Shown here in pieces: positions 2,552 through 51,047 of a stretch of DNA of 64,000 nt. Positions within the stretch are counted from its first letter, which is position 1, and the number at the start of each line of letters is the position of its first letter. Origin of the DNA: Bacteroidales bacterium (GTDB lineage: Bacteria; Bacteroidota; Bacteroidia; Bacteroidales; VadinHA17); NCBI GenBank assembly GCA_017882305.1, contig JADGPU010000001.1, forward strand, positions 7,789 to 71,788, written 5' to 3'. Below the pieces are notes generated by a model that ran no database searches, was not told where the DNA came from, and saw nothing but the letters and a program-made list of their open reading frames with translations. Position numbers and translations under genes: made by a program.

Positions 2552-4492
2552 CTAAAATTTCTTAGCTTCAATACCGAATTTAAAGCCAGCTTTAACCCGC
2601 TCTATCAATTCAGGTATGATATCAGTATATTCACCCACAATACCAAAATCTGCATTATGAAAAATATGCGCTTTAGGATTGTGGTCTATGGCGATAATTT
2701 TTTCAGATTCTTTCATACCGGCTAAGTGTTGAATTGCACCGGAGACTCCAACCGCAACATATACTTTTGGACGGATGGTTTTACCGGTTTGTCCGATTTG
2801 TCTGGCATACTCAACAATACCTTCGTCAACTACGGGACGGCTACAGGCCCATTCAGCATTTATTCCCTGACTTTTTAATGCTTCAGCCAGTGCTTGTATC
2901 AAACCTAGATTATCACTTGTTGTCCCTCGGCCACCCGTAATAATAATATCAGCATCAAAAAGATTCTGTAAACCTCCCTCTCCTCTGACTGTTTTAATAA
3001 TTTCTACCACGAAATCTTTATGCTCAAGTACAGGGTTAAAGCTGGAAACAATGCCTTTCCTCCCCTCAACACGTTGCGGAACTTCAAATGTTCCGGCACG
3101 TGCGGTTGAAATCTGTGGACAAACAAAACCTAGAATTGTAGCCAATTTGCTTTCACCATAAGTTGGACGTCTGGATTCAAGAATTGGAGTATAAATAACT
3201 TTTTCTTTTTTATCTATGTACTCTCCAATTTCAAGCCCTGTACAGTCTGCTGTTACTCCACTATCAGTCTTCATGCCTATCCTGGGAGCTAATTCTCGTC
3301 CTGAGGTAGTTGCAGCAAAAAGAGCAATTTCAGGTTTTCTTTCCTTAATGACTTGTGCAAAAATTGATGAAAACGGAAGAACAAGATATTCCTCAAGCTT
3401 ATCATTTTCAACGAGAATAACCTCATCTGAACCATGTTCAATCAGAGTTTGAGCCAAAGATTGAACATTCTTCCCAATTACCAATGTAAGTACTTTGGTG
3501 TCGTTTCCTAACTGTGTTGCCAGGTCTCTGGCCGGAGTTAAAAGCTCGAGTGAAGGTCTGGAGATTTTACCATTAGTTACTTCAGCCCAGGTAATAATTC
3601 CTTTTGCTCCATTTCTGTAGTCTTTTTCAGGGAAATCCGGACGTTCAATTTCTTTTTTGGCTGTTTTCTCCTTCTTTTCTAAAACATTCCCGCCTTTTTT
3701 TAAGTTAGCGATTAAACTATCGACTAATGAAGCTTCATTATGACCTTCGGACATTGTTATAGGCGGACGTTCACTTACAATATTAACTACTTTTACAACA
3801 ATAGTAGGGGAACCGTTGATACCTATTTTTTCGGTTCCTAAACCAATATCATCAATTCCAAAAGTTGTTATGTTCAAGGTGCGGGCTTTTATGGCACCGC
3901 TTAATGAAGGTTTTCGGGGAGGAATTCCGGTTGGAGTCAATGATATAACACAGGGGATAGGTAACTTCAAAATTTGATATCCCCCTTCTATGATTCTTCT
4001 TGCAATTACATTTCCAGCACCATCAGCTTTTACGCTCTCTACAAAAGTGGCCTGAGGAATTCCGATATTCTCGGCTACTTGTGACGGAACATGTGCAGTA
4101 TCACCATCGCTGGTTTGCCGTCCGGCTAAAATGATAAAGGGGTCTTTAGAATCTTTTGAGAAGCCTAAGTGCTTAAGCATGGTAGAAATTGCCAGGCCGG
4201 TAGCATAAGTATCGCTTCCGCCAAGTTTACGGTCGGATAACAGGTAAGCTTCGTCATAGCCCATTGAAATAGCTGTTCTAAGGGAAGTCTCAAACGATTT
4301 CGGACCCATCGAGCAGACGATTAATCTGGCATCGGGATGTTGTTTCCTGAGCTGCAATCCGGCTTCCAGACCAAACTGACAATCAATATTTATTATTGAT
4401 TTTGCTTTTGTGCGGTCCATTAATCCATCTTCCCCCATTCTCATTTCGCTGGGGAGTGGCACTTGTTTTATTAAACTTATTATTGTTAAAGC
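2552..4492 (-). CDS. Electron transfer flavoprotein, EtfB-EtfA fusion
   Basis: ORF 2552..4615 trimmed to the Met at 4492 (MALTIISLIKQVP), because the upstream part overlaps ETF-QO. The N-half is EtfB-like (GRQTSDGDTAHVPSQVAE), followed by a K/E-rich linker. The C-half is EtfA-like (VAVGVSGAIQHLAGM, HNADFGIVGE). Confidence 0.85.
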   Translation of the reverse strand, partial: ALTIISLIKQVPLPSEMRMGEDGLMDRTKAKSIINIDCQFGLEAGLQLRKQHPDARLIVCSMGPKSFETSLRTAISMGYDEAYLLSDRKLGGSDTYATGLAISTMLKHLGFSKDSKDPFIILAGRQTSDGDTAHVPSQVAENIGIPQATFVESVKADGAGNVIARRIIEGGYQILKLPIPCVISLTPTGIPPRKPSLSGAIKARTLNITTFGIDDIGLGTEKIGINGSPTIVVKVVNIVSERPPITMSEGHNEASLVDSLIANLKKGGNVLEKKEKTAKKEIERPDFPEKDYRNGAKGIITWAEVTNGKISRPSLELLTPARDLATQLGNDTKVLTLVIGKNVQSLAQTLIEHGSDEVILVENDKLEEYLVLPFSSIFAQVIKERKPEIALFAATTSGRELAPRIGMKTDSGVTADCTGLEIGEYIDKKEKVIYTPILESRRPTYGESKLATILGFVCPQISTARAGTFEVPQRVEGRKGIVSSFNPVLEHKDFVVEIIKTVRGEGGLQNLFDADIIITGGRGTTSDNLGLIQALAEALKSQGINAEWACSRPVVDEGIVEYARQIGQTGKTIRPKVYVAVGVSGAIQHLAGMKESEKIIAIDHNPKAHIFHNADFGIVGEYTDIIPELIERVKAGFKFGIEAKKF

Positions 4493-4515
4493 CATTATTA
4501 CCGTATATCTTAATG

Positions 4516-6174
4516 TTACATATTTTGAAAATCCGGGCCATTGCCACCATTTGGTACTACCCAGGTAATACCTTTCCCCGGGGATTTTATATCGCATGTT
4601 TTGCAATGCATACAATTTTCAGCATGAATTCTTAGCTCTTTCTGACCGGCTTTGTTGATATGAAGTTCATATACCTCCGACGAACAATAGAATTGCTCAG
4701 GTGCTCCGTATTGTTCAATGTTAACAGCATCGAAATTTTCCTTGTCGTTAATGTGAAGATGTACAACCTGCTGTTCATCATGGTATACTCCTGAATGGTA
4801 AACATCGGTAGACTTATCGAATGTCAACACTTTGTCGAACTCCAATTTACCTCTAAACCGCTCTTTAAATGGTTTCTTTTTAAATTGACTCAATTTAAGT
4901 GTTGTCTGGTAATCGGCATGAGATCTCAATCTGCCAAAGAAACCTGCTCCACCGGTTATTAATTGAGTCGCAAAATGCAATCCGCCAACAATTAGCCCTT
5001 TTGTGAATCCCTGTCTGAAATTACGAACAGCGTACATTTCTTTGTGAATAGCACTGTTATTTACCAGGGTCTCATATTGCTGAAGGCTTTTTTCTGATGT
5101 GTCGTTGTTTGACAATGCATCGGCAGTGGCTTGTGCAGCTAACATTCCGGATCTGACTGCTAAATGTACACCCTTTAAGGCTGGCATAGCAAGCAATCCT
5201 GCGCTATCTCCAACGATTAAGGCATTGTCGACATATAATTTGGGTACAGCGTAATGGCCTCCTTCGGGAAGGGTCTTGGCTCCGTATTCCACCAATTTAC
5301 CGCCTTTTAAAATTTTAGAAACAAAAGAGGTGGTTTTCCATATCTGGAAAGCGTCATGAACATCGAAAGTCGGATCCTGGTAATCAAGTCCGACAACAAG
5401 ACCAATGGCTACTTTATTATCATTTAAGCCATAAATGAATCCACCTCCAAATTCATCATTATCAAGCGGATAACCCATGGTGTGGTAAACATGGCCAGCC
5501 TTAATATTACCTTCCGGGACTGTCCATATTTCCTTGCAACCTAAAGAGTAAACCTGCTCATTTCTCTCCTTGTCCAGGTTAAATTTTTTAATAAGCATTT
5601 TGGTCAGGCTGCCTCGTGTTCCTTCAGCAAAAATGGTAAGCTTGGCTTCAATCCATGTCCCGGACTGAAAGTTTTCCAACTGGTGTCCATGATGATCCAA
5701 ACCAGTATCTTTGGTTTTGGCGCCTGTTACTTTTCCGTCTTTGTACAAAATCTCATCTACGGCAAAACCGGTATATATCTCTACCCCTTTTTCCTCTGCT
5801 TTTATTGCTAAATACCTGCATATCTGACCCAATGAGGCGGTGTAATTGCCATTATTACTCATGTAGGGCAAATGAAATGGCAGGGAGATGGCTCTTTTTA
5901 CCGTGAGCAAAATCGTTTTGTCTTTAGTTACCTTAGCATTGAATGGAATCTCTGAGAAATCCACATCGGGCAACAATTCTTTAAAAACTGATGGTTTAAT
6001 TATTGCACCTGATAAAATATGACTGCCGATTGCACGACCTTTTTCTATAAGTAATATTCTTTTATTTTGGCCTCTTCGTTTTAAGATATCAGCCAGATGA
6101 ATTGAAGCGGCTAAGCCGGACGGACCACCTCCGATTATTAACACATCCGTTGATACGGTATCAATATAACTCAT
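4516..6174 (-). CDS. Electron transfer flavoprotein-quinone oxidoreductase (ETF-QO)
   Basis: 552 aa. N-terminal DVLIIGGGPSGLAAS FAD fold; C-terminal ferredoxin-like CMHCKTCDIKSP; GDSAG motif. Confidence 0.85.
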   Translation of the reverse strand: MSYIDTVSTDVLIIGGGPSGLAASIHLADILKRRGQNKRILLIEKGRAIGSHILSGAIIKPSVFKELLPDVDFSEIPFNAKVTKDKTILLTVKRAISLPFHLPYMSNNGNYTASLGQICRYLAIKAEEKGVEIYTGFAVDEILYKDGKVTGAKTKDTGLDHHGHQLENFQSGTWIEAKLTIFAEGTRGSLTKMLIKKFNLDKERNEQVYSLGCKEIWTVPEGNIKAGHVYHTMGYPLDNDEFGGGFIYGLNDNKVAIGLVVGLDYQDPTFDVHDAFQIWKTTSFVSKILKGGKLVEYGAKTLPEGGHYAVPKLYVDNALIVGDSAGLLAMPALKGVHLAVRSGMLAAQATADALSNNDTSEKSLQQYETLVNNSAIHKEMYAVRNFRQGFTKGLIVGGLHFATQLITGGAGFFGRLRSHADYQTTLKLSQFKKKPFKERFRGKLEFDKVLTFDKSTDVYHSGVYHDEQQVVHLHINDKENFDAVNIEQYGAPEQFYCSSEVYELHINKAGQKELRIHAENCMHCKTCDIKSPGKGITWVVPNGGNGPDFQNM

Positions 6175-6246
6175 TCTATGACCTCCTTGTTAGATATTAT
6201 TTTTCTATAATAATGGATATAACAGTATTGGTTCTAATATGTTTAA

Positions 6247-7752
6247 TCATATTAATTTAAACCAGTCTACGTAACCGGAATCCTCTTTTTTTGGGAATTT
6301 GCAGTGATTGAATTCATTAGTACGTTGGTCATAGCAATAATCTTTCTTCCACTCATCCGCTTTTTCGACTGTCTGCCTGATAGCGTCAGTAATATATAAT
6401 AACTCATCATTCGTCATGGTTGGGTGAAGAGATAACCTTATCCAGCCGGGTTTCATTGAAAGATCTCCGGAGTCAATTTTATCTGTAATCTCTTTTGACA
6501 TCTTAAAATCAACATTTAAAAGGAAATGACCATAGGTGCCTGCACAGGAACACCCTCCTCTTACCTGAATCCCAAAATGGTCGTTAAGAAGGCTGGTAAA
6601 TAGGTTGTGATGTATATTATCAACATAAAAAGAGAAAACACCCAATCTATTCCTGATATCCGAAGCAAGAATGTGCAGATTTCTTATTTTTGATAACTCG
6701 CTGAAAGTTAATTCTATAAGCTCATTTTCTCTCTGATGTATCTTTCTTGTATCCATTTTTTCCTTAAGCTTAACTGCAAGGGCAGCTTTAATGCCTTGAA
6801 GGAATCCCGGAGTTCCGCCATCTTCTTTCACCTCAATATCTGTTATATAGCTGTAACCGCCCCATCGGTTCGTCCATTTTACAGTTCCTCCGCCAGGGCT
6901 ATCGGGAATATCGTTTTTATAAAGTTCTTTATTGAAAATTAAAACTCCGGGGCTTCCCGGCCCACCAAGAAACTTGTGAGGCGAGAAGAATATGGCATCA
7001 AGCTGATAAATCTTGTCAGCCGGGTGCATGTCAATGTCGACATAAGGAGCCGAAGCGGCAAAATCTATAAAACAATATCCGTTATGCTCATGCATTATCT
7101 TTGCAAGTTCATAGTATGGAGGGAAATATCCGGTTACATTGGAACACGATGTGAAAGAACCTATCAGCAATGGACGGTCTTTATACTTTACTATCTCTTT
7201 ACGCAAAGCGTCAGGATTGACTGTAAGATCAGAAGAAGGTTCTAAAACAACAACGTCAGCAAGTGTTTCAAACCAGGATGTGTGATTCGAATGATGCTCT
7301 GTATGCGTTAAAAATACAACAGGACGCTTTCCATTCGGAATATCTTTACATTTTTGATAATTTCCATCATTATAAGCACAGAATTTAATAGCCTGTTCAG
7401 GAACCTTTAATCCAAGGAGTCTTTGGAGTTTGGCAATAGCCGAAGTCATTCCGGTTCCGGTAAATATCAAAATATCATTATCATTGGCATTAACATGGTG
7501 CTTCACTATTTTCTGGGCGAGATGATAGGCATCAGTCATTGCCTTCCCTGTAGATGTTGATTCTGAATGTGTGTTCCCTACCATGGGACCAACATCTTCA
7601 GTAATCCTTTCTTCTATTGGTCTGTAAAGCCTTCCACTGGCTATCCAGTCTGCATAAACCAGTTTCCTGGTTCCATAAGGTGTTCTGATTTCTGCGTCAA
7701 TACCAATGATATTCCTCCTGTACTTTTCAAAATATATTTCAAGATCAGACAT
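6247..7752 (-). CDS. Aminotransferase class-V fold PLP enzyme (cysteine desulfurase-like)
   Basis: SPHKFLGGPGSPG (PLP lysine) and a VRGGCSCAGTYGH loop. The start is moved to the ATG at 7752 because 7753-7842 holds a terminator hairpin and a TAccTTTG box. Confidence 0.75.
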   Translation of the reverse strand: MSDLEIYFEKYRRNIIGIDAEIRTPYGTRKLVYADWIASGRLYRPIEERITEDVGPMVGNTHSESTSTGKAMTDAYHLAQKIVKHHVNANDNDILIFTGTGMTSAIAKLQRLLGLKVPEQAIKFCAYNDGNYQKCKDIPNGKRPVVFLTHTEHHSNHTSWFETLADVVVLEPSSDLTVNPDALRKEIVKYKDRPLLIGSFTSCSNVTGYFPPYYELAKIMHEHNGYCFIDFAASAPYVDIDMHPADKIYQLDAIFFSPHKFLGGPGSPGVLIFNKELYKNDIPDSPGGGTVKWTNRWGGYSYITDIEVKEDGGTPGFLQGIKAALAVKLKEKMDTRKIHQRENELIELTFSELSKIRNLHILASDIRNRLGVFSFYVDNIHHNLFTSLLNDHFGIQVRGGCSCAGTYGHFLLNVDFKMSKEITDKIDSGDLSMKPGWIRLSLHPTMTNDELLYITDAIRQTVEKADEWKKDYCYDQRTNEFNHCKFPKKEDSGYVDWFKLI

Positions 7753-7796
7753 AAAAGTAAGTTTATAACAGAAGAAATATTTAAACCAATAGACAG

Positions 7797-7804
7797 CAAA
7801 GGTA
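7797..7804 (-). promoter_or_regulatory. Bacteroidota-type -7 box, TAccTTTG
   Basis: The minus strand reads TACCTTTG about 45 nt upstream of the ATG at 7752. Confidence 0.45.
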
Positions 7805-7819
7805 ATCACTTTCAATTGT

Positions 7820-7849
7820 AAAAAAAGAGGCGCTGGATTCAACGTCTCT
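7820..7849 (-). terminator. Intrinsic terminator after the DsrE-like gene
   Basis: The minus strand reads AGAGACG-ttgaatccag-CGCCTCT followed by TTTTTT. The 7-nt stem has one mismatch. Confidence 0.55.
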
Positions 7850-7877
7850 TCTCATTATTAGCATGGAATGGAATTTT

Positions 7878-8375
7878 CTATGTAAAAATTATCTGTGCAC
7901 CTTCTCCACCTGCAAGTTCATAAAACTCACCAACAGTCAGGATCCTGCTGACATGGTCACTAAGATCTTCCTTTTTTAACTTGAACATATCCACAGCAGT
8001 CTTACAGGCATATATCTTACCACCTCCTGCGGTGATCAGATCAAGAAATTCACTCACAGGAGGAATATCAAGTTTTTCCATTTGGCCCTTCATCATCCAT
8101 GAAGTGAATGCTTCCATTCCCGGAATAATACCTAAAAGTGTTGGCATTCTCATACCTCCGGGCAGACGTAACGCAGGGTTGCCTACAACTCCGGTATGTA
8201 GCTTATCCATCCTGTTTTTTGTTATTGCATCCATACCAAAGAATGTGAAGAAAAGGTTTGCTTCAAGTCCTTCCATAACTGCACCATTTCCCAATATCAG
8301 GGTAGCATAAACATCCTCAATTGAGCCTTTGGCGCAAATGAGACTTACTTTTTTTATTGGAAATTTTTGTTCCAT
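7878..8375 (-). CDS. DsrE/DsrF/DrsH-like family protein
   Basis: 165 aa. VSLICAKGSIEDVY and GGKIYACKTAVDMF resemble the DsrE-like sulfur-relay / 'peroxiredoxin family' fold. Confidence 0.7.
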   Translation of the reverse strand: MEQKFPIKKVSLICAKGSIEDVYATLILGNGAVMEGLEANLFFTFFGMDAITKNRMDKLHTGVVGNPALRLPGGMRMPTLLGIIPGMEAFTSWMMKGQMEKLDIPPVSEFLDLITAGGGKIYACKTAVDMFKLKKEDLSDHVSRILTVGEFYELAGGEGAQIIFT

Positions 8376-8396
8376 AAGACTTAGTTTTATAATAGA

Positions 8397-8708
8397 TTAA
8401 ACGCAACTTGCTGGTTTTGGTATCCCGGCTATTTTTGTCGCTTTTTTCAGGGGTGCCCCAGGAAAAAGCTGGTAGAACGTTTTAACATCAATTACTCCTG
8501 AGTGATTAATGCTCCTGATAGATAATGCTTCACCTCCGTTAAATCTGTTACGGAGAAACTCCATGATTGCATAATGCTGTCCTGTAAGAACAATTCCTTC
8601 TTCTTTAGCAATTTCAACTGCAATTTCTTTTGTCCATTGTGAAGGATTTGTAAAATATCCCTCTTCGTTAACATCTACTTTAACGTCTGCGTAAGTTTTT
8701 TGTGCCAT
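8397..8708 (-). CDS. TusE/DsrC/DsvC family sulfur-relay protein (TusE-like, single C-terminal Cys)
   Basis: 103 aa ending GIPKPASCV, the family's penultimate-Cys arm. There is no second Cys about 10 residues upstream. Confidence 0.85.
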   Translation of the reverse strand: MAQKTYADVKVDVNEEGYFTNPSQWTKEIAVEIAKEEGIVLTGQHYAIMEFLRNRFNGGEALSIRSINHSGVIDVKTFYQLFPGAPLKKATKIAGIPKPASCV

Positions 8709-8763
8709 AATATAGAAATTAGATTATCAATTGTTAATTAACTGATTATTATTAATAAATGCT

Positions 8764-9996
8764 TTAATTCTGTATTTTGCCTTTCATCGACATGTAATTT
8801 GTTACCGGAAGTCTTCTTGCTCTCAGGAGTATATTCCAGTATATCCATTTAAATAGTAGTTTTCCGAGGTGATTTAACCTCGACTCTTTTAATAATGAGA
8901 AGGGGCCAATGTAAGGTAAAGGATATAATCCGGGAAGAGGCTCAGTTGCATAATTAAAATCAATAAGGATACCCTTGCCAAAACCTGTCTCAATATAGCA
9001 ATTGGAGTGGCCATCAAAAGAAACAGTCAATGGTCTGTTATTTATGAATTCAATGATGTTTTTCTCAAGCACATCTGCCTGGAAATGAGCAACAGAGCCT
9101 GCTTTTGATGAAGGGAAATTCCCGGCATCTCCGATTACAAAGATATTTTTATACAATACTGACTGGAGGGTATTCTTATCGGCTTTAACAAATCCGAATT
9201 CATCTCCGAGACCACTTTTTGAAATCACGGGGTCGCCTGTATGAAGAGGTATTGAAACCAGACAGTCAAAAGGAACGTCTCTGCCACCGAAATCGAGTAT
9301 TTTTTTATTAGTGTTATCAACCTCACCCAGGAAGAAATCACTTACCAGGTTTATATTTTTCCTGCCAAGAAGAGATCCAAGCTCTTTGGATGCTTTTGGT
9401 TTAGTAAACGCACCTGATAATGGCGTGACATAAGTAATATTCACTTTATCGCGCATACCTTTGCTGGTAAAATAGTAGTCAGAAAGAAAGGCGAACTCCA
9501 ACGGAGCAACAGGGCATTTGATAGGATTATCAGCTATATTAATAACAAGATTTCCTCCCTGCCACGTCTTGAAAAATCCTGCAAGAGCTTCCGCTCCCTC
9601 AATGGTATAAAAATCAAATATGTTTTTCTGCCAAAGCTCTCCTTTTAAACCAGGAGTTTCTTCGGGACTGATTCTTGTTCCGGTAGCGATAATAAGGATA
9701 TCATAACCTATTTCATTACCATTAACAAGAGTTACATTATTCTTTGCTGCATCAATCTTTTCAATCTCACTATTTATTACTTCAACTCCCTTTGGAAAGA
9801 ATTTAAGGGTAGGTTTGAGAATTTCTTTTTTCTGATAATAACCAAAAGGGATAAACAAAAAACCTGGTTGATAATAATGATTCATTTCCTTTTCCACTAC
9901 AGTCACACTCCAATCATTACCTGGCAACTCTTTTCTCATCTTATTTGCCATTATTGTTCCGGCAGTACCAGCACCAAGTATTAAAAGTTTCTTCAT
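8764..9996 (-). CDS. NAD(P)/FAD-dependent oxidoreductase, sulfide:quinone oxidoreductase-like
   Basis: LILGAGTAGT FAD-binding site, IKCPVAPLEFAF, FVIGDAG, and a C-terminal amphipathic tail. Confidence 0.75.
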   Translation of the reverse strand: MKKLLILGAGTAGTIMANKMRKELPGNDWSVTVVEKEMNHYYQPGFLFIPFGYYQKKEILKPTLKFFPKGVEVINSEIEKIDAAKNNVTLVNGNEIGYDILIIATGTRISPEETPGLKGELWQKNIFDFYTIEGAEALAGFFKTWQGGNLVINIADNPIKCPVAPLEFAFLSDYYFTSKGMRDKVNITYVTPLSGAFTKPKASKELGSLLGRKNINLVSDFFLGEVDNTNKKILDFGGRDVPFDCLVSIPLHTGDPVISKSGLGDEFGFVKADKNTLQSVLYKNIFVIGDAGNFPSSKAGSVAHFQADVLEKNIIEFINNRPLTVSFDGHSNCYIETGFGKGILIDFNYATEPLPGLYPLPYIGPFSLLKESRLNHLGKLLFKWIYWNILLRARRLPVTNYMSMKGKIQN

Positions 9997-10008
9997 ATTT
10001 CAGTTGTT

Positions 10009-10026
10009 CTGTTAATTTATTAACAG
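10009..10026. promoter_or_regulatory. Candidate Rex operator, CTGTTAA-TTTA-TTAACAG
   Basis: Perfect 7+7 palindrome with 12/14 match to TTGTTAA-N4-TTAACAA. It lies 13-30 nt upstream of the ATG at 9996. Confidence 0.65.
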
Positions 10027-10028
10027 TA

Positions 10029-10036
10029 CAAATGTA
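10029..10036 (-). promoter_or_regulatory. -7 box, TAcaTTTG
   Basis: The minus strand reads TACATTTG, 2 nt before the Rex-type palindrome. Confidence 0.5.
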
Positions 10037-10182
10037 TTTCATATATTGAACTATCTAGATATTTATGATATTTATGATGTTTTATGTTTTTTTACATGTT
10101 AAAAAACAATATTAAAAAAAACAGAGTACCTTAGGCCGTCTAAAAAATTCATTATTGTTTTTATTATTTAACTACTAAATTT

Positions 10183-14167: not shown

Positions 14168-14599
14168 ATGGCAGAAAAAGAGAACCTTTTACTCACCGAT
14201 AAACAGATCTATCCCACTGATGAATATATCTTTTCAATAATAGGGGATATGAAGATCTTTTGGCAGAGTATTATGAACCACATGATCAATAACTATAAAG
14301 ATTCTGCCGGTGAGTGGAATTTTTATAATGACGGGAAAAGATGGCTTTTTAAGATGATCTATAAAAAGAAAACTATTTTCTGGGCCGGCATCTTAACTGA
14401 TACATTCCGGATTACCTTCTATCTTGGGAATAAGGCTGAAACTATAATTGAAAATAGTGACCTCCCTCAGAATATAAAAGAAGAATTCAGAACAGCCAAA
14501 AGATATGGTTTAATCAGACCTGTTACGTTTATTGTCAAAAACAAAACAGATGTCGATAATGTATTAAAAATGATTGATATAAAGAGTAAAATAAAATAA
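14168..14599 (+). CDS. DUF3788-like protein
   Basis: 143-aa ORF. The assignment comes from overall resemblance (WNFYNDGKRWLFKM) and is weak. Confidence 0.55.
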   Translation: MAEKENLLLTDKQIYPTDEYIFSIIGDMKIFWQSIMNHMINNYKDSAGEWNFYNDGKRWLFKMIYKKKTIFWAGILTDTFRITFYLGNKAETIIENSDLPQNIKEEFRTAKRYGLIRPVTFIVKNKTDVDNVLKMIDIKSKIK

Positions 14600-14618
14600 T
14601 TTCAATTGACGAAAAGGC

Positions 14619-14754
14619 TAATTGTCTTGTTGTCTTACAGTCCTGCGGTCTTGCAGTCTTGGAGTATCTTTTATTGTTTTGCCCCCGCCTTGCGGGATTT
14701 CGTCACTTCGTTCCTCAACTTTTGCCATTTGCCATTTGACTTTTACCTTTCAAC
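14619..14754. repeat. Composite low-complexity spacer: 8-nt-period array, hairpin element, then 7-nt-period array
   Basis: Octamers ttgttgtc/ttacagtc/ctgcggtc/ttgcagtc/ttggagta (14627-14666). Heptamers cctcaac/ttttgcc/atttgcc/atttgac/ttttacc/tttcaac (14713-14754). Confidence 0.75.
14679..14724 (+). repeat. Dispersed hairpin element, copy 1 (CCCGC-CTT-GCGGG core)
   Basis: ttgcccccgccttgcgggattt...acttcgttcctcaactttt matches the reverse complement of 40486-40542, apart from a 4-nt versus 16-nt central segment. Confidence 0.8.
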
Positions 14755-14815
14755 TACGTATAAATACCCCATATAAATAGGCTTTAAGCTTCTTTCCCTC
14801 TTTTCATTTAGGTAT

Positions 14816-14823
14816 TACCTTTG
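14816..14823 (+). promoter_or_regulatory. -7 box, TAccTTTG
   Basis: TACCTTTG abuts the Rex-type palindrome, 38 nt upstream of the ATG at 14861. Confidence 0.5.
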
Positions 14824-14840
14824 TGTTAATCTTTTAACAA
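14823..14840. promoter_or_regulatory. Candidate Rex operator, GTGTTAA-TCTT-TTAACAA
   Basis: 13/14 half-site match to TTGTTAA-N4-TTAACAA, ending 20 nt upstream of the hdrC-like start. Confidence 0.65.
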
Positions 14841-14860
14841 TTGTCACTTATTACAGGCTG

Positions 14861-15568
14861 ATGGGAAAACTATACGATTCATTATTAGAAGATGTCAGGT
14901 TTGAAGAAGGACTGAATGCGTGTATGAATTGCGGAGTCTGTACTGCTATTTGTCCGGCTGCTGAGTTTTATAATTACGATCCCAGAAAAATTGTCGATGA
15001 AGTTCAGACGAAGGATGATGATAAAATTACTGAACTTTTAAAGTCTGAAACAATTTGGTATTGCGGTGAATGTATGTCATGCAAGACACGCTGTCCCCGA
15101 GGTAATGCTCCCGGATTGATAATCATGGCATTGCGATCGCTTTCACAGGATCTTGGGTTCTTTACAGAATCCGAAAAAGGAAGACAGCAGCTTGCACTTA
15201 AAAGGACCGTTGGCCATTGGATACTTACTTATGGATACTGTCTATATCTTGAGGGTGTCGGTACATCATTACATCCTGAACAGGGGCCTGTTTGGGACTG
15301 GATTCAGGATAACTGGAGCGACCTGTTTAAAAAAATGGGAGCTAATTATAAAGGGGATGGCCCTGGAATACTCAGGAGAATACCTGAAGAGGCGATGGAT
15401 GAAATCAGGGAAATATTTAAAGTGACCGGCGGAATGAAAAGATTTGAAAATATTGAAAAATTCTCAAAGAAAAAAGCCAAGGAATTAAATATGCAATTGG
15501 ATGAAGGTATTGAGAATGAGTACTTCCGGCATATCTATAAAACTAATAATGGTTCTCATACAAGATAA
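14861..15568 (+). CDS. HdrC-like 4Fe-4S dicluster protein
   Basis: CMNCGVCTAICP and CGECMSCKTRCP, in the helical-ferredoxin arrangement of HdrC. Confidence 0.8.
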   Translation: MGKLYDSLLEDVRFEEGLNACMNCGVCTAICPAAEFYNYDPRKIVDEVQTKDDDKITELLKSETIWYCGECMSCKTRCPRGNAPGLIIMALRSLSQDLGFFTESEKGRQQLALKRTVGHWILTYGYCLYLEGVGTSLHPEQGPVWDWIQDNWSDLFKKMGANYKGDGPGILRRIPEEAMDEIREIFKVTGGMKRFENIEKFSKKKAKELNMQLDEGIENEYFRHIYKTNNGSHTR

Positions 15569-15580
15569 TATTTTCAGAAA

Positions 15581-16642
15581 ATGATACTTGAAGGTAAAAA
15601 AGCCATTTGGAATGATTATCAGAAGGAAATTGCTGACGACAAATATTATTATGTAAGAAGCTGCGTAAGACAAAATTTTTTTCCCGGATCAGAAACAGCC
15701 TTTCTCAAAATAATGCGTGAGGAGCTTAAGAAGGATGTATATGAGCATCCCTGCCATACAACGTGCACAGGAATTGGATATCATGGCGATATTGTTCCTG
15801 TTGAAACTACAATGACTGTTGTTGCACGTCAGTTTGCCATAATGACTGAAGCCGGCTATGAGAACCTTTTACCATCCTGCATTACATCTTTCGGATTATA
15901 TACAGAAATACTGGATACCTGGCATCATTTTCCCGAGGTCGAGGAAAAAGTGAGACGACAACTAAGAAAAGCAACCGGCAGAGAATTCAGGAAACCAAAG
16001 AACCTGGCACATGCAAGTGATGTGATCTATAAATTCAGAAAGGAGATCGCCTCAAAAGCAAAATATAAGCTTGTAAATAAAAATACCGGAGAACCATTGA
16101 AAGTTGTTGATCATATCGGATGTCATTATGCTAAGATGTTCCCTTCCAAAGGAATTGGTGGTGCTGAATATCCTTATGTGCTTGCCGGGATGGTTGAGGA
16201 ATGGGGTGGGAACGTAATTGATTATCCTGAAAGAAGGCACTGCTGCGGATTTGGCTTCAGGCAATACCTTGTACAGGCAAACAGAGGTTTCTCTGTTGCA
16301 TGTTCAAAAGAAAAATTTGAATCGATGAAACCTTTCAAACCAGATATGATAATTACAAACTGTCCGGGTTGCCCAATGTTCCTTGACAGATGGCAATATG
16401 TTATAAATGAGATGGAAGGCAAAAGATATGGCCAGAATGAAGAAGGAATTCCTGTCTTTACATATGAAGAAGTAGCCGGACTTGTTCTTGGCTATGATCC
16501 ATGGGAGTTAGGTCTTCAGATGCATCAGACCGATTGCGAACCAGTTCTGGACAAGATAGGCATTGACTATTCCCCGGAAGATAAATATAATCTTAAAATT
16601 ATTCCATCATATTCAGAAAGTCGCAGTTTAATAAACGTTTGA
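15581..16642 (+). CDS. HdrB-like protein with CCG domains
   Basis: HIGCHYAKMFP, RRHCCGFG and ITNCPGCPMF form a CCG domain. The N-terminal half has a degenerate copy (CHTTCTGIG). Confidence 0.8.
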   Translation: MILEGKKAIWNDYQKEIADDKYYYVRSCVRQNFFPGSETAFLKIMREELKKDVYEHPCHTTCTGIGYHGDIVPVETTMTVVARQFAIMTEAGYENLLPSCITSFGLYTEILDTWHHFPEVEEKVRRQLRKATGREFRKPKNLAHASDVIYKFRKEIASKAKYKLVNKNTGEPLKVVDHIGCHYAKMFPSKGIGGAEYPYVLAGMVEEWGGNVIDYPERRHCCGFGFRQYLVQANRGFSVACSKEKFESMKPFKPDMIITNCPGCPMFLDRWQYVINEMEGKRYGQNEEGIPVFTYEEVAGLVLGYDPWELGLQMHQTDCEPVLDKIGIDYSPEDKYNLKIIPSYSESRSLINV

Positions 16643-16648
16643 TTGTTA

Positions 16649-17677
16649 ATGAGTAAGCATGTTATAGTCATAGGTGGTGGAGTTGCAGGACTTGAAGTTG
16701 CAGGTCAGTTATCTAAAGTCGGAATTGAAGTCAGCCTGATAGAAAAGGAATCAAAAACCGGAGGACACCTGAATAATTGGTATAAACTCTTCCCCGACAG
16801 GAGGAATAGCTCCGAGGTAAAGGAATACCTCAATGGAATTACTGCAAATAATGGAATTAACCTGATGACTGATACAACGATAGAAAAGTTTAACCGGAGC
16901 AGGAGCTGTTTTTCAATTACAACAAATGGAGGAAAAGAGCTGATCGCTGATGCAATTGTTGTAGCTACAGGTTTTGATCTATTTAAAAGCGCCAGGAAAG
17001 AGGAGTATGGTTATGGTATTTATGATAACGTCATTACATCTGCTGATCTTGAGGAGATGTTCAGGAAAGGAGAAATTGTACTAACTGACGGTTCTGTTCC
17101 TGAATCGATTGGAATCATACACTGTGTTGGCTCAAGAGATGAGAAAGTCGGCAATTATTATTGCTCAAAATTATGCTGTGTCACTGCAGTTAAGCAAGCT
17201 ATAGAGTTAAGAGAACATCTTCCTGAATCGAAAGTCTTTTGTTACTATATGGATATGAGGATGGGTGGAGCCTTTTATGAAGAGCTTTATCGGGAAGCTC
17301 AGGAAAAATGGGGTGTTAACTTCATAAGAGGCAAAGTATCTGAGGCAAGCGAGACAATCGAAAAAAAACTCATGGTAAAGGTCGAGGATACTCTTGCAGG
17401 GAGACCACTTAAAATGAATCTCGATATGCTGGTTTTAATGGCAGGCATGGAAATGTCAGCAGGTGGGGAAAAAGTTGCCGGTATGAGTGGCCTTAAAACA
17501 GGCGAAAACAGGTTTTTTGCTGCAGCCGATAATCATTTTGGCAGCAACAAAAGTAATATCGAAGGGATATTCTATGCAGGTACATGCACTGCGCCAATGA
17601 ATATTACCGAAACAATTTCACATGCACGGGCAGCTTTTACCGAGGTAATGGAATGGCTTAGAAATGGTAAAAGATAA
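16649..17677 (+). CDS. HdrA-like FAD-dependent oxidoreductase (short form)
   Basis: VIVIGGGVAGLE, and CVGSRDEKVGNYYCSKLCC, the HdrA CxGSRD...CSxxCC cluster motif. About 340 aa, lacking the ferredoxin and MvhD-type domains. Confidence 0.8.
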   Translation: MSKHVIVIGGGVAGLEVAGQLSKVGIEVSLIEKESKTGGHLNNWYKLFPDRRNSSEVKEYLNGITANNGINLMTDTTIEKFNRSRSCFSITTNGGKELIADAIVVATGFDLFKSARKEEYGYGIYDNVITSADLEEMFRKGEIVLTDGSVPESIGIIHCVGSRDEKVGNYYCSKLCCVTAVKQAIELREHLPESKVFCYYMDMRMGGAFYEELYREAQEKWGVNFIRGKVSEASETIEKKLMVKVEDTLAGRPLKMNLDMLVLMAGMEMSAGGEKVAGMSGLKTGENRFFAAADNHFGSNKSNIEGIFYAGTCTAPMNITETISHARAAFTEVMEWLRNGKR

Positions 17678-18023
17678 TATGGAAAAATTCGGATTTACCA
17701 TATCAAAAGGACGGCAGATCGACTATGAGTCCAATAACCGGAGAATAGCCGAGTACATTTTTGAGAATGAACCCAGCTTCAGACTATGCTTTGAATGTGG
17801 CGGTTGCTCGGCGACTTGTACTACCGCTAATTTTACAGGTTTTAGTCTTCGGGAACTTAATATACTGATTAAACGTGGCGAAAATGATCAGGTACGCAGT
17901 ACTTTAAAAAAATGCATGCTCTGTGGTAAATGTACCCTGGTTTGTCCACGAGGAGTCAATACCAGAAATATAGTGGTTCTGGCAAAACAAGCCTTTCAAA
18001 AATCGGATGAATATGAAATTTGA
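17664..18023 (+). CDS. Small HdrC2-like 4Fe-4S dicluster protein
   Basis: CFECGGCSATC and CMLCGKCTLVCP. The start overlaps the hdrA-like stop by 14 nt. Confidence 0.75.
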   Translation: MVKDNMEKFGFTISKGRQIDYESNNRRIAEYIFENEPSFRLCFECGGCSATCTTANFTGFSLRELNILIKRGENDQVRSTLKKCMLCGKCTLVCPRGVNTRNIVVLAKQAFQKSDEYEI

Positions 18024-19911
18024 TCCTTTCATAATACCATTTAATATTGGATTATACTTCATACTCATATATGTTGTATCAAGAAGTGTAATATGGTTCC
18101 GCGACCTCTCACGACCGGATAAGCTGAGGCTGCAACGTGGGTTCTTTGGTATAGCCTTTGGCCTGAGCCTTAAAGAAATATTTATGGAGAGTTTGATACA
18201 CAGGAAGATATTTAAAACAAATATCCGCCTGGGTTATATGCATATGAGCCTGGCTTTCGGCTGGTTTTTACTTATATTATTTGGCACAATTGAAGCTGAT
18301 ATTTTTAGCGCGAAACACCTTAATGCTCCTTATAAAGCTATCTTTTTCAGGTTCTTCAATCCCGATCATGGCAGGATGGGATTTGAGGCAGCTTATGGAT
18401 TTTTAATGGATCTGATACTTGCATTTATTCTGTCAGGATTATTGGTGGCTGTTTTGAAAAGGTTTTATTCGAAAATTGTCGGTATGAAGAAGACTACCCG
18501 TCTGAAGATGTCCGACAGAATTGCCCTTACTTCACTATGGCTTATCTTCCCCAGCCGTCTCCTAGCTGAAAGTTTCACGTGTGGCGCTTATGGTACCGGC
18601 AGTTTTCTTACCGGATCACTTGGAGCCTGGTTTGCAACATTCCTTCCGGCCCAACAGATGGCCTATCCTTTCTGGTGGCTTTATTCCATCTCTTTGGGAA
18701 CTTTTTTCGTTCTTTTACCGATAACAAGGTATATGCACATACCCACTGAACTATTCCTTATTTTTATGAGAAATTCAGGAATAAAAACCGGCGACAAGAC
18801 AGGTACATATTCAGAGGTTCAAACTTACTCCTGCTCTTCATGCGGAATATGCATTGATGCATGTCAGCTTAATTTTTCAGCAGGTATTACCAATATTCAG
18901 TCAGCTTACCTAATGAAGGCTATTCGTAATAACGATGACGTTTCTGAAATCGCTGATAACTGCCTGATGTGTGGCAGGTGCGATCAGAAATGTCCCGTGG
19001 GAATAGAACTTTCTCCAATCAGGATGATCCAAAGAAGGGCAGGTGAAGCTGAAAATGATTTCAGGAACATTTATAAAGGTTATTTCAGGAGCCGGCAGCC
19101 TATTATTTCAGAAAAAGCCATTGGTTCTTCAAATTATTCTTTCCTTCATGAAACAGATCCGGAAAAAGCTGACATTTTGTATTTTGCAGGTTGTATGACC
19201 CACCTGACTCCAACTATTAAAAATTCCATGATAAAAATTCTCGATGCCTCAGGAGTGAAATACAATTTTATTGATGAGCAGGGAGGTGTCTGTTGTGGAC
19301 GTCCGTTAATGCTTGCAGGACAGGATAAGGAAGCCAGGGAACTTATTAATTATAATTCGCAGATGATCTGGAAATCGGGCGCTCACACACTAATAACATC
19401 GTGTCCAATATGTTATAAAGTTTTTAAGGAGAGCTATTATCTTGATGTTGAGGTGCTTCATCACACACAATTTATTAAGATGCTCATCGATGAAGGATCT
19501 GTGAAATTGAATTTCTTACGCAATAAAGTTGTCTATCATTCTCCTTGCGATCTTGGAAGAGGATCAGGTGTCTATGATGAACCAAAAGAGGTTCTGAATC
19601 ATGTTTCTCGCCTTCAGAAAAGCAATTTCGAAGATGGAAATTCCCTTTGTTGTGGAGGAAGTCTTGCTAACATGAAAATAAGTTCTCAGAAGAAAAAGAA
19701 AATAGCTCTCGAAGCCGCTATAGAACTGACCAAAGATAACCCCGATATCCTTGCAACCGCCTGTCCTCTTTGTAAAAAGACTTTCTCAGCTGTTACAGAA
19801 ACAAGAGTCGCAGATATTTCAGAGATTGTGGCCGAAGCTTTAATTGAGAAACCCGTGAAAAAAAATAACATCAGCAATGTCAAATCAATAAGAGAGTTGG
19901 CAAATATTTGA
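18007..19911 (+). CDS. Membrane cytochrome-b-like (NarI/HdrE/DsrM-type) domain fused to an HdrD-like Fe-S/CCG protein
   Basis: The N-terminal ~260 aa have 5-6 helices with His in YMHMS and RYMHIP. These are followed by CSSCGICIDACQ and CLMCGRCDQKCP, then two CCG domains (GGVCCGRP/ITSCPICYK and LCCGGS/TACPLCKK). Confidence 0.8.
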   Translation: MNMKFDPFIIPFNIGLYFILIYVVSRSVIWFRDLSRPDKLRLQRGFFGIAFGLSLKEIFMESLIHRKIFKTNIRLGYMHMSLAFGWFLLILFGTIEADIFSAKHLNAPYKAIFFRFFNPDHGRMGFEAAYGFLMDLILAFILSGLLVAVLKRFYSKIVGMKKTTRLKMSDRIALTSLWLIFPSRLLAESFTCGAYGTGSFLTGSLGAWFATFLPAQQMAYPFWWLYSISLGTFFVLLPITRYMHIPTELFLIFMRNSGIKTGDKTGTYSEVQTYSCSSCGICIDACQLNFSAGITNIQSAYLMKAIRNNDDVSEIADNCLMCGRCDQKCPVGIELSPIRMIQRRAGEAENDFRNIYKGYFRSRQPIISEKAIGSSNYSFLHETDPEKADILYFAGCMTHLTPTIKNSMIKILDASGVKYNFIDEQGGVCCGRPLMLAGQDKEARELINYNSQMIWKSGAHTLITSCPICYKVFKESYYLDVEVLHHTQFIKMLIDEGSVKLNFLRNKVVYHSPCDLGRGSGVYDEPKEVLNHVSRLQKSNFEDGNSLCCGGSLANMKISSQKKKKIALEAAIELTKDNPDILATACPLCKKTFSAVTETRVADISEIVAEALIEKPVKKNNISNVKSIRELANI

Positions 19912-20003: not shown

Positions 20004-20552
20004 ATGTGTAGGAAAACATATGGGTTGCTAATATTGTTTGGTATAGGTATATTTTGTTCATGCAAGAATACAAGCGAACAGAAGGAAGCCAAAATGATAA
20101 TTGTTCAGAACAAGATTTTACAACAGAAGGATGGCACCATTTCTTTAAAAGTTGATAAAGCAGATTGTTATCAGGATATGGTAAATCCTTCAAGCAATAC
20201 AGCTGAATGGAATGTTGTTGTTTCTAAATCAGGACGTTTCAATGTATGGTTGTCGAGCGCTACAAAAGATACTACCGATCTGAAATACAATAATTCAGTG
20301 ATGCTGAGCATTCTTGATAACAGGATTGAAGCTCATCCGGCCTGTGACAAAATAGTACATAACTCAAACGATGTTAGTTATCCCTATTTCAGAGCGGACT
20401 CATTTATAGGGTCACTTTATATTCAGGATACCGGGTTATATAATATTCAGATAATCAGTGAGAAAATTGTTAAGGATATTAAGAAGGGAGTATCTTCAGG
20501 TTTGGAGAATTCAAAACTTCTATCAGTCTTTTTAACCCCGACTACCCGTTAG
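20004..20552 (+). CDS. Hypothetical lipoprotein
   Basis: Signal peptide plus lipobox (LILFGIGIFCSC). I recognise no family motif. The 3' end overlaps the purL stop region by 11 nt (convergent). Confidence 0.6.
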   Translation: MCRKTYGLLILFGIGIFCSCKNTSEQKEAKMIIVQNKILQQKDGTISLKVDKADCYQDMVNPSSNTAEWNVVVSKSGRFNVWLSSATKDTTDLKYNNSVMLSILDNRIEAHPACDKIVHNSNDVSYPYFRADSFIGSLYIQDTGLYNIQIISEKIVKDIKKGVSSGLENSKLLSVFLTPTTR

Positions 20553-45556: not shown

Positions 45557-45973
45557 TTATAAATATTTCCTGTCTTCCTCGGGTATGTCAAAATATTTAT
45601 TATAGGTTTTAACATCAGGACCACTCTTTTCTTCTATTTTATTTCCCCTGATCTTATAAGTACACTTTTCTCCTGCAATACCTGAAAAATAAATGTTGTA
45701 CTCTTTTCCATCGTCATCAATCATTATAATCCTTACCAGATGATTGTACTTGGCACTGTTTAATTGTGAGTGACAGATAGGACACGTATAAATATATTCT
45801 TCACCTTCTTTTATATGGAAAGAAGGATGTGTTGTGGTTGTGTAGTTCCCGATCTCAGGATTCAAAAAAATCAATCCTCTTGCAGGACTGTTGGTTTTTG
45901 AGGCAGCAAGTACAATTGAAGTTTTAACTTTGAGATGTCCCCTGCATACTTTACAAAGATATTCTACAGCCAT
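45557..45973 (-). CDS. Hypothetical CxxC...CxxC protein, last gene of the hydrogenase operon
   Basis: 138-aa ORF with CKVCRGH and CPICHSQ about 60 residues apart. Its start overlaps the protease gene by 23 nt. Confidence 0.6.
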   Translation of the reverse strand: MAVEYLCKVCRGHLKVKTSIVLAASKTNSPARGLIFLNPEIGNYTTTTHPSFHIKEGEEYIYTCPICHSQLNSAKYNHLVRIIMIDDDGKEYNIYFSGIAGEKCTYKIRGNKIEEKSGPDVKTYNKYFDIPEEDRKYL

Positions 45974-46430
45974 GATGCACCTCCTGCTTGTTTATTAGTT
46001 TAATAATCTTATCTGCAACATTCTTTACAAGGTACGACAAATTTTCACCAAAGTCAATTTTTTCAGGTTGGATTCCGAGTACATAAACAGGCATCGTGAA
46101 GAATTCCGATAACCGTCTCAATGAAATATTATGAGTATTAAAAGTCAGATCCTGTATCTGCCTTAGTGATAGTAGTTTAAATGTTCCCGTAATGGCCTTC
46201 AAATCCACACAGTCAATAAGTATCAGTATATCGGGATTCAGACTAACTATTTTCCCGATATAATTTTCAATGCTTGCCTCTACGGTGAGCGATAATATTG
46301 AATCGTTTGTCCTTATTCTTTTGCTTATATATACACCGACACCATCATCCATTTTGAGAAGATTTCCGATTCCTACAAAAAGCTTTTTTTTATCTTTTTG
46401 GAACAGGATTTTATTTAGGTCATCATGCAT
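45951..46430 (-). CDS. hycI: Hydrogenase maturation endopeptidase (HycI/HyaD family)
   Basis: VGIGNLLKMDDGVGVY (GxGNxxxxDDGxG), LIDCVD, and FNTHNISL. Confidence 0.85.
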   Translation of the reverse strand: MHDDLNKILFQKDKKKLFVGIGNLLKMDDGVGVYISKRIRTNDSILSLTVEASIENYIGKIVSLNPDILILIDCVDLKAITGTFKLLSLRQIQDLTFNTHNISLRRLSEFFTMPVYVLGIQPEKIDFGENLSYLVKNVADKIIKLINKQEVHHGCRISL

Positions 46431-47043
46431 CCCTGAATAAGTATTTTATCTGGATTTGTCTCAGACAGTTAGGGCATATAATATTGAACATATCTTTTCT
46501 TTTCAGGTTATCTGTAATTTCAGAAGCAATGGACTGCCCTTCGGCCAGCTTTAGTTTCTCATTTAGCAGATTCAGATTCAGGATGGAAGAAAATGCTTTC
46601 GGACCAAGTTTCCTATGCATAAAATGAAGATGCTCCTTAGTTGTTATTACTGCATGGCAACTTTTACAAATGAGGAGTTCTTTTTCCTGGAATTCAACAT
46701 TTTTTTGTCTGTCAAACACAGCCAGGTCAAAAATTTTATCCGATAGTTTCACTCCTTTGCCGGTAATACAATGATCCTGACACTGCCCACAAAAGATACA
46801 CTTCCCGTAATCTCTTTTTATTGTCCTGATTCCCTTTTCTTTATCATCGACAAATGTTATAGCCTCTGGTGGACAAACATTTGCGCAGGTTTCACAACCA
46901 ACACAGTTCTCATCATCGACAACAGGCTTACCTCTGAAGTTTTCGAAAGGGACATGAGGTTCCTTCGGGAACTTCGATGTGTACGCAGGTGTGAAAAGAG
47001 AAACGAGTGCCTCTTTAACTTCTCTTACTTTAGGATACTTCAT
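46423..47043 (-). CDS. NuoI/MbhN-like 2x[4Fe-4S] subunit with a Cys-containing C-terminal extension
   Basis: CVGCETCANVCPP and CIFCGQCQDHC, with additional CKSCH ... CPNCL pairs in the last ~90 aa. Confidence 0.8.
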   Translation of the reverse strand: MKYPKVREVKEALVSLFTPAYTSKFPKEPHVPFENFRGKPVVDDENCVGCETCANVCPPEAITFVDDKEKGIRTIKRDYGKCIFCGQCQDHCITGKGVKLSDKIFDLAVFDRQKNVEFQEKELLICKSCHAVITTKEHLHFMHRKLGPKAFSSILNLNLLNEKLKLAEGQSIASEITDNLKRKDMFNIICPNCLRQIQIKYLFRDA

Positions 47044-48107: not shown

Positions 48108-48108
48108 T

Positions 48109-49647: not shown

Positions 49648-49650
49648 ATT

Positions 49651-50423: not shown

Positions 50424-50429
50424 AAAGCA

Positions 50430-50504
50430 AAAAGTCAAAATTCAAAAGTCAAAACTCAAAACTCAATATTCAATCTGCACCCTGCATCCTGCACCCTGCA
50501 ACTC
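50430..50504. repeat. 7-nt-period array (11 units) filling an intra-operon gap
   Basis: aaaagtc aaaattc aaaagtc aaaactc aaaactc aatattc aatctgc accctgc atcctgc accctgc aactcct. Confidence 0.85.
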
Positions 50505-51032: not shown

Positions 51033-51047
51033 TTCAGCTTTAATTAT

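Follow-up and report, generated by a model that had tools for sequence, protein, structure and literature searches.

Rex operators follow a general consensus, TTGTGAANNNNTTCACAA, and a Clostridial/Thermoanaerobacterales variant, TTGTTAANNNNTTAACAA. Type II sHdr gene clusters are described as shdrC1B1AHB3-etfAB-emo (PMC11094781). In characterised systems, repressors keep sqr and shdr genes silent until they become loaded with sulfane sulfur and dissociate from the DNA, as described for sHdrR and SoxR of Hyphomicrobium denitrificans (PMC11582611). Here we analyzed a stretch of 64,000 nt from an uncultured Bacteroidales bacterium (assembly GCA_017882305.1, contig JADGPU010000001.1, positions 7,789–71,788), hereafter the window, in which a site resembling the Clostridial Rex variant lies on the promoter of an Hdr-like operon. 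The site is a perfect 16-bp palindrome, TGTTAA-TCTT-TTAACA, and a second perfect copy of its core, TGTTAA-N4-TTAACA, lies on the promoter of an opposite-facing operon headed by a gene for sulfide:quinone reductase (SQR). From its phylogenetic footprint in about 25 species, the palindrome is predicted to be a genuine conserved protein-binding operator, of a common type (a repressor site at a promoter) in a previously undescribed setting.

A conserved palindrome on the hdrC-like and SQR promoters

The palindrome extends to an 18-mer, GTGTTAATCTTTTAACAA, whose first base, the G at 14823, is shared with TACCTTTG, a −7 box matching TAnnTTTG, the −7 consensus of the Bacteroidetes primary sigma factor (PMC7366714). 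Its end is separated by 20 nt from the ATG at 14861 of a gene for a 235-amino-acid (aa) HdrC-like 4Fe-4S protein (hdrC hereafter). Thirteen of 14 positions agree with TTGTTAA-N4-TTAACAA, the Rex consensus of Clostridia, although the host belongs to the Bacteroidales. The site was the sole match to this consensus in the window at up to one mismatch (0.03 expected; reached in 3 of 100 shuffles), three matches were found at up to two mismatches versus 1.16 expected, and there was no enrichment in the window at up to three mismatches (12 versus 11 expected). The perfect core was found twice in the window, at 14824–14839 and 10010–10025, versus 0.01 expected and in none of the 100 shuffles with which in-window expectations were checked. 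Compared with the general Rex consensus, the site at 14824–14839 has three mismatches, with T/A at the discriminating positions.

Conservation supports the palindrome much more than these in-window statistics, as judged from sequence comparison. We compared hdrC loci from 80 other species (HdrC identity of 60–95%), 80 Rex loci (identity of 84–95%) and 9 distinct SQR promoters, annotated genes with Pfam and NCBIfam models (in the window, open reading frames (ORFs) of at least 100 aa) and scanned for motifs in 1.24 Mb of sequence comprising the hdrC loci and the window, or in a larger sample of 1.79 Mb that included the Rex loci. The nearest HdrC, Rex and SQR homologues of the window were from fen, lake and sediment metagenome-assembled genomes. 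About 34 of the 80 hdrC loci form a clade marked by a common upstream element and a downstream lipoprotein gene, and within this clade the core was perfect in 18 species, had one mismatch in 6–7 and two mismatches in 2, and was degenerate in 7. Every conserved core was located 20–45 nt before the ATG and fused to TAnnTTTG, whose T, A and TTTG columns were invariant in a 25-species alignment of hdrC promoters. The N4 spacer, the outer flanks and the leader varied freely among relatives, and the outermost T and A of the 18-mer were not conserved. Since the core recurs at orthologous promoters in about 25 species, a chance match is excluded. Deviations among 27 orthologous sites were all one-sided with no compensatory pairs, and this combination of an invariant core, free spacer and flanks, and uncompensated changes is the signature of an operator rather than of an RNA structure.

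The second copy, TGTTAATTTATTAACA, precedes SQR on the minus strand, where the region 10009–10036 reads TACATTTG-TAC-TGTTAATAAATTAACA, followed by 13 nt and the SQR ATG. The core was present with no more than one mismatch at all 9 distinct SQR promoters. From the 1.24 Mb of sequence we obtained 23 perfect cores, 19 at hdrC promoters and 4 at SQR promoters, the latter all taking the form CTGTTAA...TTAACAG-(A/T)ACAAA. The looser core TGTTA-N6-TAACA was found 33 times in the 1.79 Mb, nearly always at hdrC or SQR promoters, and no TGTTAA motif was found behind a −7 box at any other promoter in the same sequence. Two TGTTA-type sites, at L093:9095 and L115:6378, were not behind a −7 box. As far as sampled (1.79 Mb), the predicted regulon is exactly the sulfur module. 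In a 94%-identical relative (L002, fen_946; ∼3100–10000), SQR, DsrC and DsrE have been lost from the ETF operon, the hdrC palindrome is degenerate, and no site was found upstream of the gene now heading the remaining ETF operon; the operator seems to have disappeared along with its targets.

The transcription start of hdrC is predicted at ∼14827–14831, giving a leader of ∼31–34 nt that matches the 32-nt median of Bacteroides 5′ untranslated regions (PMC7366714). Since this predicted start is inside the palindrome, repression by occlusion is the natural reading, in which a dimeric transcriptional repressor bound to the core, which starts −2 to +3 bp from the end of the −7 box, would cover the start and block RNA polymerase. 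The box-to-core offset slides over this range among the hdrC promoters, which fits steric occlusion better than a phased contact. Bound to the same operator at 10010–10025, the repressor would switch both halves of the type II-sHdr-like module together.

An earlier note on this DNA had reported the 13-of-14 match, the base shared with the −7 box and the 20-nt gap to the ATG, all of which were confirmed in coordinates and sequence, and had proposed a promoter-overlapping operator over the start, with which the fusion of the core to an invariant TAnnTTTG and the predicted start within the palindrome agree. Absence of the site from relatives with the same operon, which the note would have counted against its claim, was not observed, the site being kept in about 25 species at the same promoter position. 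The note had also described the layout as recurring at 10009–10036 and 58839–58865. The recurrence was seen at both places, on the minus strand in each case, but the palindrome at 58839–58865 is TGTGA-N6-TCACA and belongs to the other site type described below.

Upstream of the hdrC −7 box by 19 nt lies a −33-like TTTC with nearly invariant T columns, which was assigned from spacing only, and directly upstream of it is an element ‘E’, GTATAAATAC-CCC-N4-AAATAGGCTTTAAGCTT. Across relatives this element has the form GTATWWATAC-CCC-N4/5-AAATAGGYTTTAAGCYT and holds a pair of short inverted repeats (GTAT..ATAC and AGGCTT.AAGCCT). In the 25-species alignment its invariant columns outnumber those of the palindrome; the element is retained in palindrome-losing species (L002, L003, L008, L010 and L078), and is a candidate activator site. 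The SQR promoter has a conserved upstream element of its own, CATCATAAWTATCATAWATATCTAGATARTTCAATATAT (∼10040–10080, minus strand), which was common to all SQR loci compared and is unrelated to the hdrC element. Each promoter seems to pair a promoter-specific upstream site with the shared operator. Tandem repeats with units of 7–8 nt in 3–16 copies, the unit differing by species, were also found 60–300 nt upstream of hdrC, in 25 of 73 upstream regions compared with 27 of 730 windows drawn at random from these loci, including loci where the palindrome is absent. Those of the window are at 14624–14665 and 14721–14738 (GTCTTGCA ×5 and TTTGCCA ×2.6), other units include TCTCTGA ×9 in L008 and CTTCCTC ×16 in L079, and further repeats were located upstream of hdrC in L004, L006, L019, L020, L021, L029, L033, L055, L060 and L066.

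Two site classes and the Rex gene of the window

The window encodes a Rex protein, as the earlier note had implied, with matches to PF06971 and PF02629 and a score of 205.8 bits against the NCBIfam Rex equivalog NF003996 (cutoff 138). The rex gene faces away from a long operon encoding a group-4 membrane-bound [NiFe] hydrogenase and is followed by hypF and hypD. Perfect TGTGA-N6-TCACA sites were found exactly twice in the window versus 0.05 expected, one on the hydrogenase-operon promoter, where 58839–58865 reads TAATTTTA-TC-TGTGAAACTTCTCACA-TAAATTAA-ATG on the minus strand, and one over the GTG start codon of rex. Both sites were kept in essentially all of the 80 relatives compared. The hydrogenase site, located 3–8 nt before the ATG and preceded by a TAAyTTTA box, was found in 69 of 70 Rex loci, L149 being the only Rex locus without a perfect site, and the rex-start site, TGTGAAACAA(A/G)TCACA, was perfect in all of its 59 unique contexts. 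Apart from these two elements, the rex–hydrogenase intergenic region was poorly conserved. Among 150 perfect TGTGA-N6-TCACA sites in the 1.79 Mb, 149 were in this intergenic region or over the rex start, and the other, in a Lentimicrobiaceae locus (L059, 6042–6059), is a perfect general-consensus TTGTGAATCTTTTCACAA fused to a −7 box, TACTTTTG. The L059 site ends 27 nt before a 717-aa aldehyde:ferredoxin-oxidoreductase-like ORF.

Given that the conserved sites adjoin rex and the hydrogenase genes, we took TGTGA-N6-TCACA, which equals the general Rex consensus, as the probable Rex motif of this lineage. The site at 58840–58855 is probably the true Rex operator of the hydrogenase operon and that at 59023–59038 probably an autoregulatory one. 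In the conservation of the latter, coding constraint may add to DNA-site constraint, and the DNA site may limit the choice of the first rex codons no less than the protein does. A decayed hybrid remnant, TGTTTAAATATTAACA, was found upstream of rex in the window, and the close relatives L117, L118, L123 and L140 have a hybrid TGTGAAATTATTAACA behind a −7-like TATTTTTA box facing rex, which was absent from most Rex loci.

Half-site position 4 is the sole difference between the two motif classes. It was T in 53 of 54 half-sites at hdrC promoters and always G at the hydrogenase sites (46 unique contexts) and the rex-start sites (59). Substitutions in deviant T-type sites were scattered, and only L007 (hdrC) and L169 (SQR) gave G at position 4. 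Since the G and T classes stay apart, two proteins with different preferences are the simplest reading: one G-preferring protein would obtain weak sites through any mismatch rather than through the same T held in both halves, and with one protein accepting both bases the classes would mix. No conserved TGTTAA-type site was found at the hydrogenase promoter, and near rex there was only the decayed hybrid of one subclade. In the 1.79 Mb, the TGTTAA type was not found at the typical Rex targets, rex and hydrogenase, which carry TGTGA.

The recognition helix of the window Rex, QVRKDFSEF, has the Arg-Lys pair, as does that of T. thermophilus Rex, a TGTGA binder. Arg-Lys is also found in T. maritima Rex, where the O6 atom of the second half-site G is contacted by a bond from Lys49 (PMC8836258), while T. 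ethanolicus Rex (3wg9), which binds ATTGTTA-N6-TAACAAT (PMC5886521), has Arg-Gln (IRQD). The nearest Rex subfamily was uniformly Arg-Lys in a search of 1.84 billion proteins. In this helix comparison, which covered five structures only and in which Lys could also contact T, the Arg-Lys helix points weakly to TGTGA rather than TTGTTA binding.

The hydrogenase operon (45557–58831, minus strand) opens with sulfhydrogenase/AsrAB-like beta (57833–58831) and gamma (57009–57836) genes, followed by a gene for a 151-aa cNMP-binding protein (56496–56951) with no DNA-binding family match and then by NuoH/B/C/D-like, Mrp-type and HycI genes, and is apparently an unusual combination of an NAD(P)H module with Mbh/Mrp. 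In the window Rex and its nearest subfamily, the usual wing DLSYFGxxGxxGxGY is replaced by a divergent one, DFSEFCIKGNKRGGY. The divergent form may go with A, not T, at the outermost operator positions (ATGTGA...TCACAT).

Candidate proteins for the T-type sites

We consider it probable, if only just, that the T-type sites belong to a separate T-preferring repressor of the sulfur module, a Rex-like paralogue included. The binder would prefer T at position 4 and would most likely not be the Rex of 59024–59707, whose sites keep G; one candidate is a paralogue of Rex type whose helix carries Gln. Since the regulon comprises only SQR and the sHdr-like complex, its content alone suggests a sulfur signal, which could be sulfide or sulfane sulfur by analogy with CstR, SqrR and sHdrR/SoxR. 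More tentatively, and somewhat short of probable in our judgment, two palindromes that are one bp apart per half and placed alike on the start may separate a Rex regulon, containing the NAD(P)H-linked membrane hydrogenase and rex, from the split sHdr-like and SQR module of a previously undescribed sulfur- or redox-sensing repressor. The earlier note had named Rex as the binder and had placed the Hdr-like operon in one regulon with the hydrogenase. The first proposal is disfavored by the TGTGA sequence of the rex-linked sites, the T of the hdrC half-sites and the Arg-Lys helix, and the second by the restriction of TGTTAA-type sites to the Hdr-like and SQR operons.

Several observations weigh against a separate repressor. 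No regulator gene adjoined either operon in ∼40 loci (33 hdr and 7 sqr), and the DNA-binding regulators among the annotated window ORFs of at least 100 aa were Rex and a LytTR response regulator only. Ten of 12 core positions are identical between the motifs, whose placement relative to the −7 box is also the same, as one protein would give, and hybrid half-sites were found at real regulatory positions, namely at hdrC in L007, at SQR in L169 and upstream of rex in L117, L118, L123 and L140. The Lys side chain could in principle also bond thymine O4, which leaves the helix argument suggestive, and since the Rex loci are close relatives (84–95%), the constancy of G was seen over a narrower range of divergence than that of T. 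Furthermore, Ravcheev 2012 reportedly predicted that Rex controls Hdr-like Qmo and sulfate-reduction genes in Desulfovibrionales.

Other candidates were rejected or gave no lead. The recurrent, initially unassigned ORFs of the 33 clade loci encode rhodanese, YeeE-type transporter halves, PsrB/C-like proteins, PAP2, glutathione peroxidase, ABC/FtsX and M3 peptidase, none of them DNA-binding, which argues against a local regulator, and orf182 (20004–20552) is a lipoprotein by sequence. Proteins with DUF3795 and DUF3788 gave no informative match to solved structures. No second rex was found within the 1.8 Mb sampled, and none of the Arg-Gln Rex clusters found by HMMER in 1.84 billion representatives was tied to Bacteroidales. 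A hybrid site at L019:5661, which falls within a 633-aa ORF, was set aside as a chance occurrence.

The best surviving alternative is that the window Rex binds both TGTTAA-N4-TTAACA and TGTGA sites and represses the Hdr-like, SQR and hydrogenase operons at low NADH, with the T-for-G difference only tuning affinity. We regard it as unlikely, though clearly worth weighing. With rex as the only palindrome-type regulator found in the window and no local regulator near hdr or sqr in ∼40 loci, a single protein is consistent with the core and promoter positions common to both motifs, with the 13-of-14 match to the Clostridial consensus and with the hybrid half-sites upstream of rex (L117 type) and at one hdrC and one SQR promoter. 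In several relatives rex and hdrC are apparently on one contig, and complexes of the ETF and Hdr-like kinds could plausibly serve as electron sinks linked to NADH. Against this, T was held in 53 of 54 half-sites across HdrC identities of 60–95% while G was found at all hydrogenase and rex-start sites, and the weak sites of a G-optimal protein would not always carry T in both halves. Its Arg-Lys helix is moreover of the TGTGA-binder type, the known TTGTTA binder having Arg-Gln (PMC8836258; PMC5886521), and the hydrogenase has no conserved TGTTAA-type site, with only the decayed hybrid of one subclade near rex.

It is very unlikely that the assignments are swapped, such that TGTTAA-N4-TTAACA is the Rex motif of the lineage and TGTGA-N6-TCACA that of a CRP/FNR-type regulator. 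The 6-4-6 geometry of the hdr and sqr sites with invariant AA/TT is typical of Rex logos and the rex-locus sites are conserved mainly in a CRP-like 5-6-5 frame, but in every rex-locus site one of the halves is a canonical 6-mer, TGTGAA or TTCACA. The cNMP-binding protein encoded inside the hydrogenase operon at 56496–56951 has only 151 aa and no DNA-binding family match. The perfect TTGTGAATCTTTTCACAA on the aldehyde-oxidoreductase-like promoter of L059, the Arg-Lys helix and the adjacency to rex all point to TGTGA for Rex.

That the palindrome is an RNA or DNA leader hairpin, a component of an extended promoter or a coincidental match is hardly credible: the RNA can form a 6-bp hairpin and a 40-nt leader including it folds at −5.2 kcal/mol, but this fold is no better than shuffles (z = −1.26), 14500–14950 has no Rfam match and the 27 orthologous sites have one-sided deviations without compensatory changes, on which grounds an RNA element was rejected, while the hairpin would not be fully transcribed from a predicted start inside the repeat, and chance is contradicted by recurrence at the orthologous promoters of ∼25 species.

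The sulfur module and its closest described systems

The genes preceded by the two T-type sites are listed in Table 1 with the other features. The gene order of the Hdr-like operon (14861–19911) was kept in 29–33 loci and that of the SQR operon (2552–9996) was repeated in L163–L165. Taken as one set, the two operons resemble in gene content a type II sHdr-like sulfur system, with a putative oxidation direction in these anaerobes. The neighbours in relatives include rhodanese, YeeE-type sulfur transporters and PsrBC-like genes. The SQR gene matched the NCBIfam model ‘type III SQR, selenoprotein subtype’ with 613 bits (cutoff 525) in an uninterrupted 410-aa ORF, and the window SQR is presumably the Cys form.

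Table 1. Coordinates of the sites and genes in the window
Feature	Position	Strand	Remarks
ETF beta-alpha fusion	2552–4615	−	SQR operon
ETF:quinone oxidoreductase	4516–6174	−	SQR operon
Class-V aminotransferase	6247–7842	−	desulfurase-like
DsrE-like	7878–8375	−	SQR operon
DsrC/TusE-like	8397–8708	−	SQR operon
Type III SQR	8764–9996	−	first gene of SQR operon
Operator copy TGTTAATTTATTAACA	10010–10025		SQR operon promoter; perfect core
−7 box TACATTTG	10029–10036	−	SQR operon
Element ‘E’ GTATAAATAC-CCC-N4-AAATAGGCTTTAAGCTT	14758–14791	+	candidate activator site
−33-like TTTC	14793–14796	+	assigned from spacing only
−7 box TACCTTTG	14816–14823	+	matches TAnnTTTG
18-mer palindrome GTGTTAATCTTTTAACAA	14823–14840		shares G at 14823 with −7 box
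Operator core TGTTAA-TCTT-TTAACA	14824–14839		16 bp, perfect; kept in relatives
HdrC1-like	14861–15568	+	235 aa, 4Fe-4S
HdrB1-like	15581–16642	+	
Short HdrA-like	16643–17677	+	344 aa
Fer4 protein	17664–18023	+	119 aa, ferredoxin-like
Fer4 + 2xCCG fusion	18007–19911	+	634 aa, HdrC/HdrB-like
TGTGA-N6-TCACA site TGTGAGAAGTTTCACA	58840–58855		hydrogenase-operon promoter
Decayed hybrid remnant TGTTTAAATATTAACA	58910–58925		upstream of rex
TGTGA-N6-TCACA site TGTGAAACAAATCACA	59023–59038		over rex GTG start codon
rex	59024–59707	+	PF06971 and PF02629; NF003996

The predicted operator would tie two separated operons, one Hdr-like and one with SQR, sulfur carriers, ETF and ETF:quinone oxidoreductase, into one functional unit, and as such would be independent evidence for a type II-sHdr-like sulfur pathway in uncultured Bacteroidales of fens, lakes and sediments. 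It also calls for caution in motif transfer, the Clostridial Rex consensus having found a real Bacteroidales site but probably for the wrong protein, where the lineage's own Rex motif can be read directly from the conserved sites at rex and hydrogenase. If one bp per half-site does separate two regulons, the pair would be a compact natural system for studies of operator discrimination.

A search of the available literature, including full text for the motif, found no Bacteroidota Rex regulon, no report of TGTTAA-N4-TTAACA and no regulator described for type II sHdr. CRP/FNR sites (TGTGA-N6-TCACA) share the 5-6-5 frame, from which TGTTA-N6-TAACA differs by one base per half, but the window operator is centred on the predicted start and not near −41.5, and no CRP/FNR protein with a DNA-binding domain was found in the window. 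CstR, SqrR/BigR and sHdrR/SoxR are similar in their targets, which are sqr and sHdr-type operons, and a promoter-overlapping operator fits sulfur-relieved repression; their genes, however, normally adjoin the targets and none adjoins them here. To our knowledge, the published operators of the CstR/SqrR/sHdrR families do not resemble TGTTAA-N4-TTAACA. Rex operators are similar in form, with a 16–18 bp palindrome in a TGT...ACA frame, 6-4-6 geometry, an A/T-rich centre and overlap with the core promoter, and the window site matches their Clostridial variant at 13 of 14 positions. They differ in that the host belongs to Bacteroidales and not Clostridia, its Rex is of the Arg-Lys type, the outer T/A is not conserved, and the window TGTTAA sites mark only sulfur genes and not rex, hydrogenase or fermentation genes.

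The genes themselves resemble the described type II sHdr clusters (PMC11094781), encoding in order HdrC1-like, HdrB1-like and short HdrA-like proteins, then a small protein and one in which HdrC- and HdrB-like parts are fused. ETF, ETF:quinone oxidoreductase and DsrE- and DsrC/TusE-type proteins are also present, as in those clusters (PMC11094781). The small 119-aa protein has a Fer4 domain and its equivalence to sHdrH is uncertain, neither the lipoate-binding protein LbpA nor lipoate-maturation genes were found among the annotated window ORFs of at least 100 aa, and Bacteroidota are not among the phyla named in the passages of PMC11094781 consulted. The ETF fusion and ETF:quinone oxidoreductase lie 8.7–12.3 kb upstream of the hdrC-like start, within the co-marked SQR operon. 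In contrast to the described clusters, the window set is thus divided between two opposite-facing operons ∼5 kb apart and is joined to a type III SQR.

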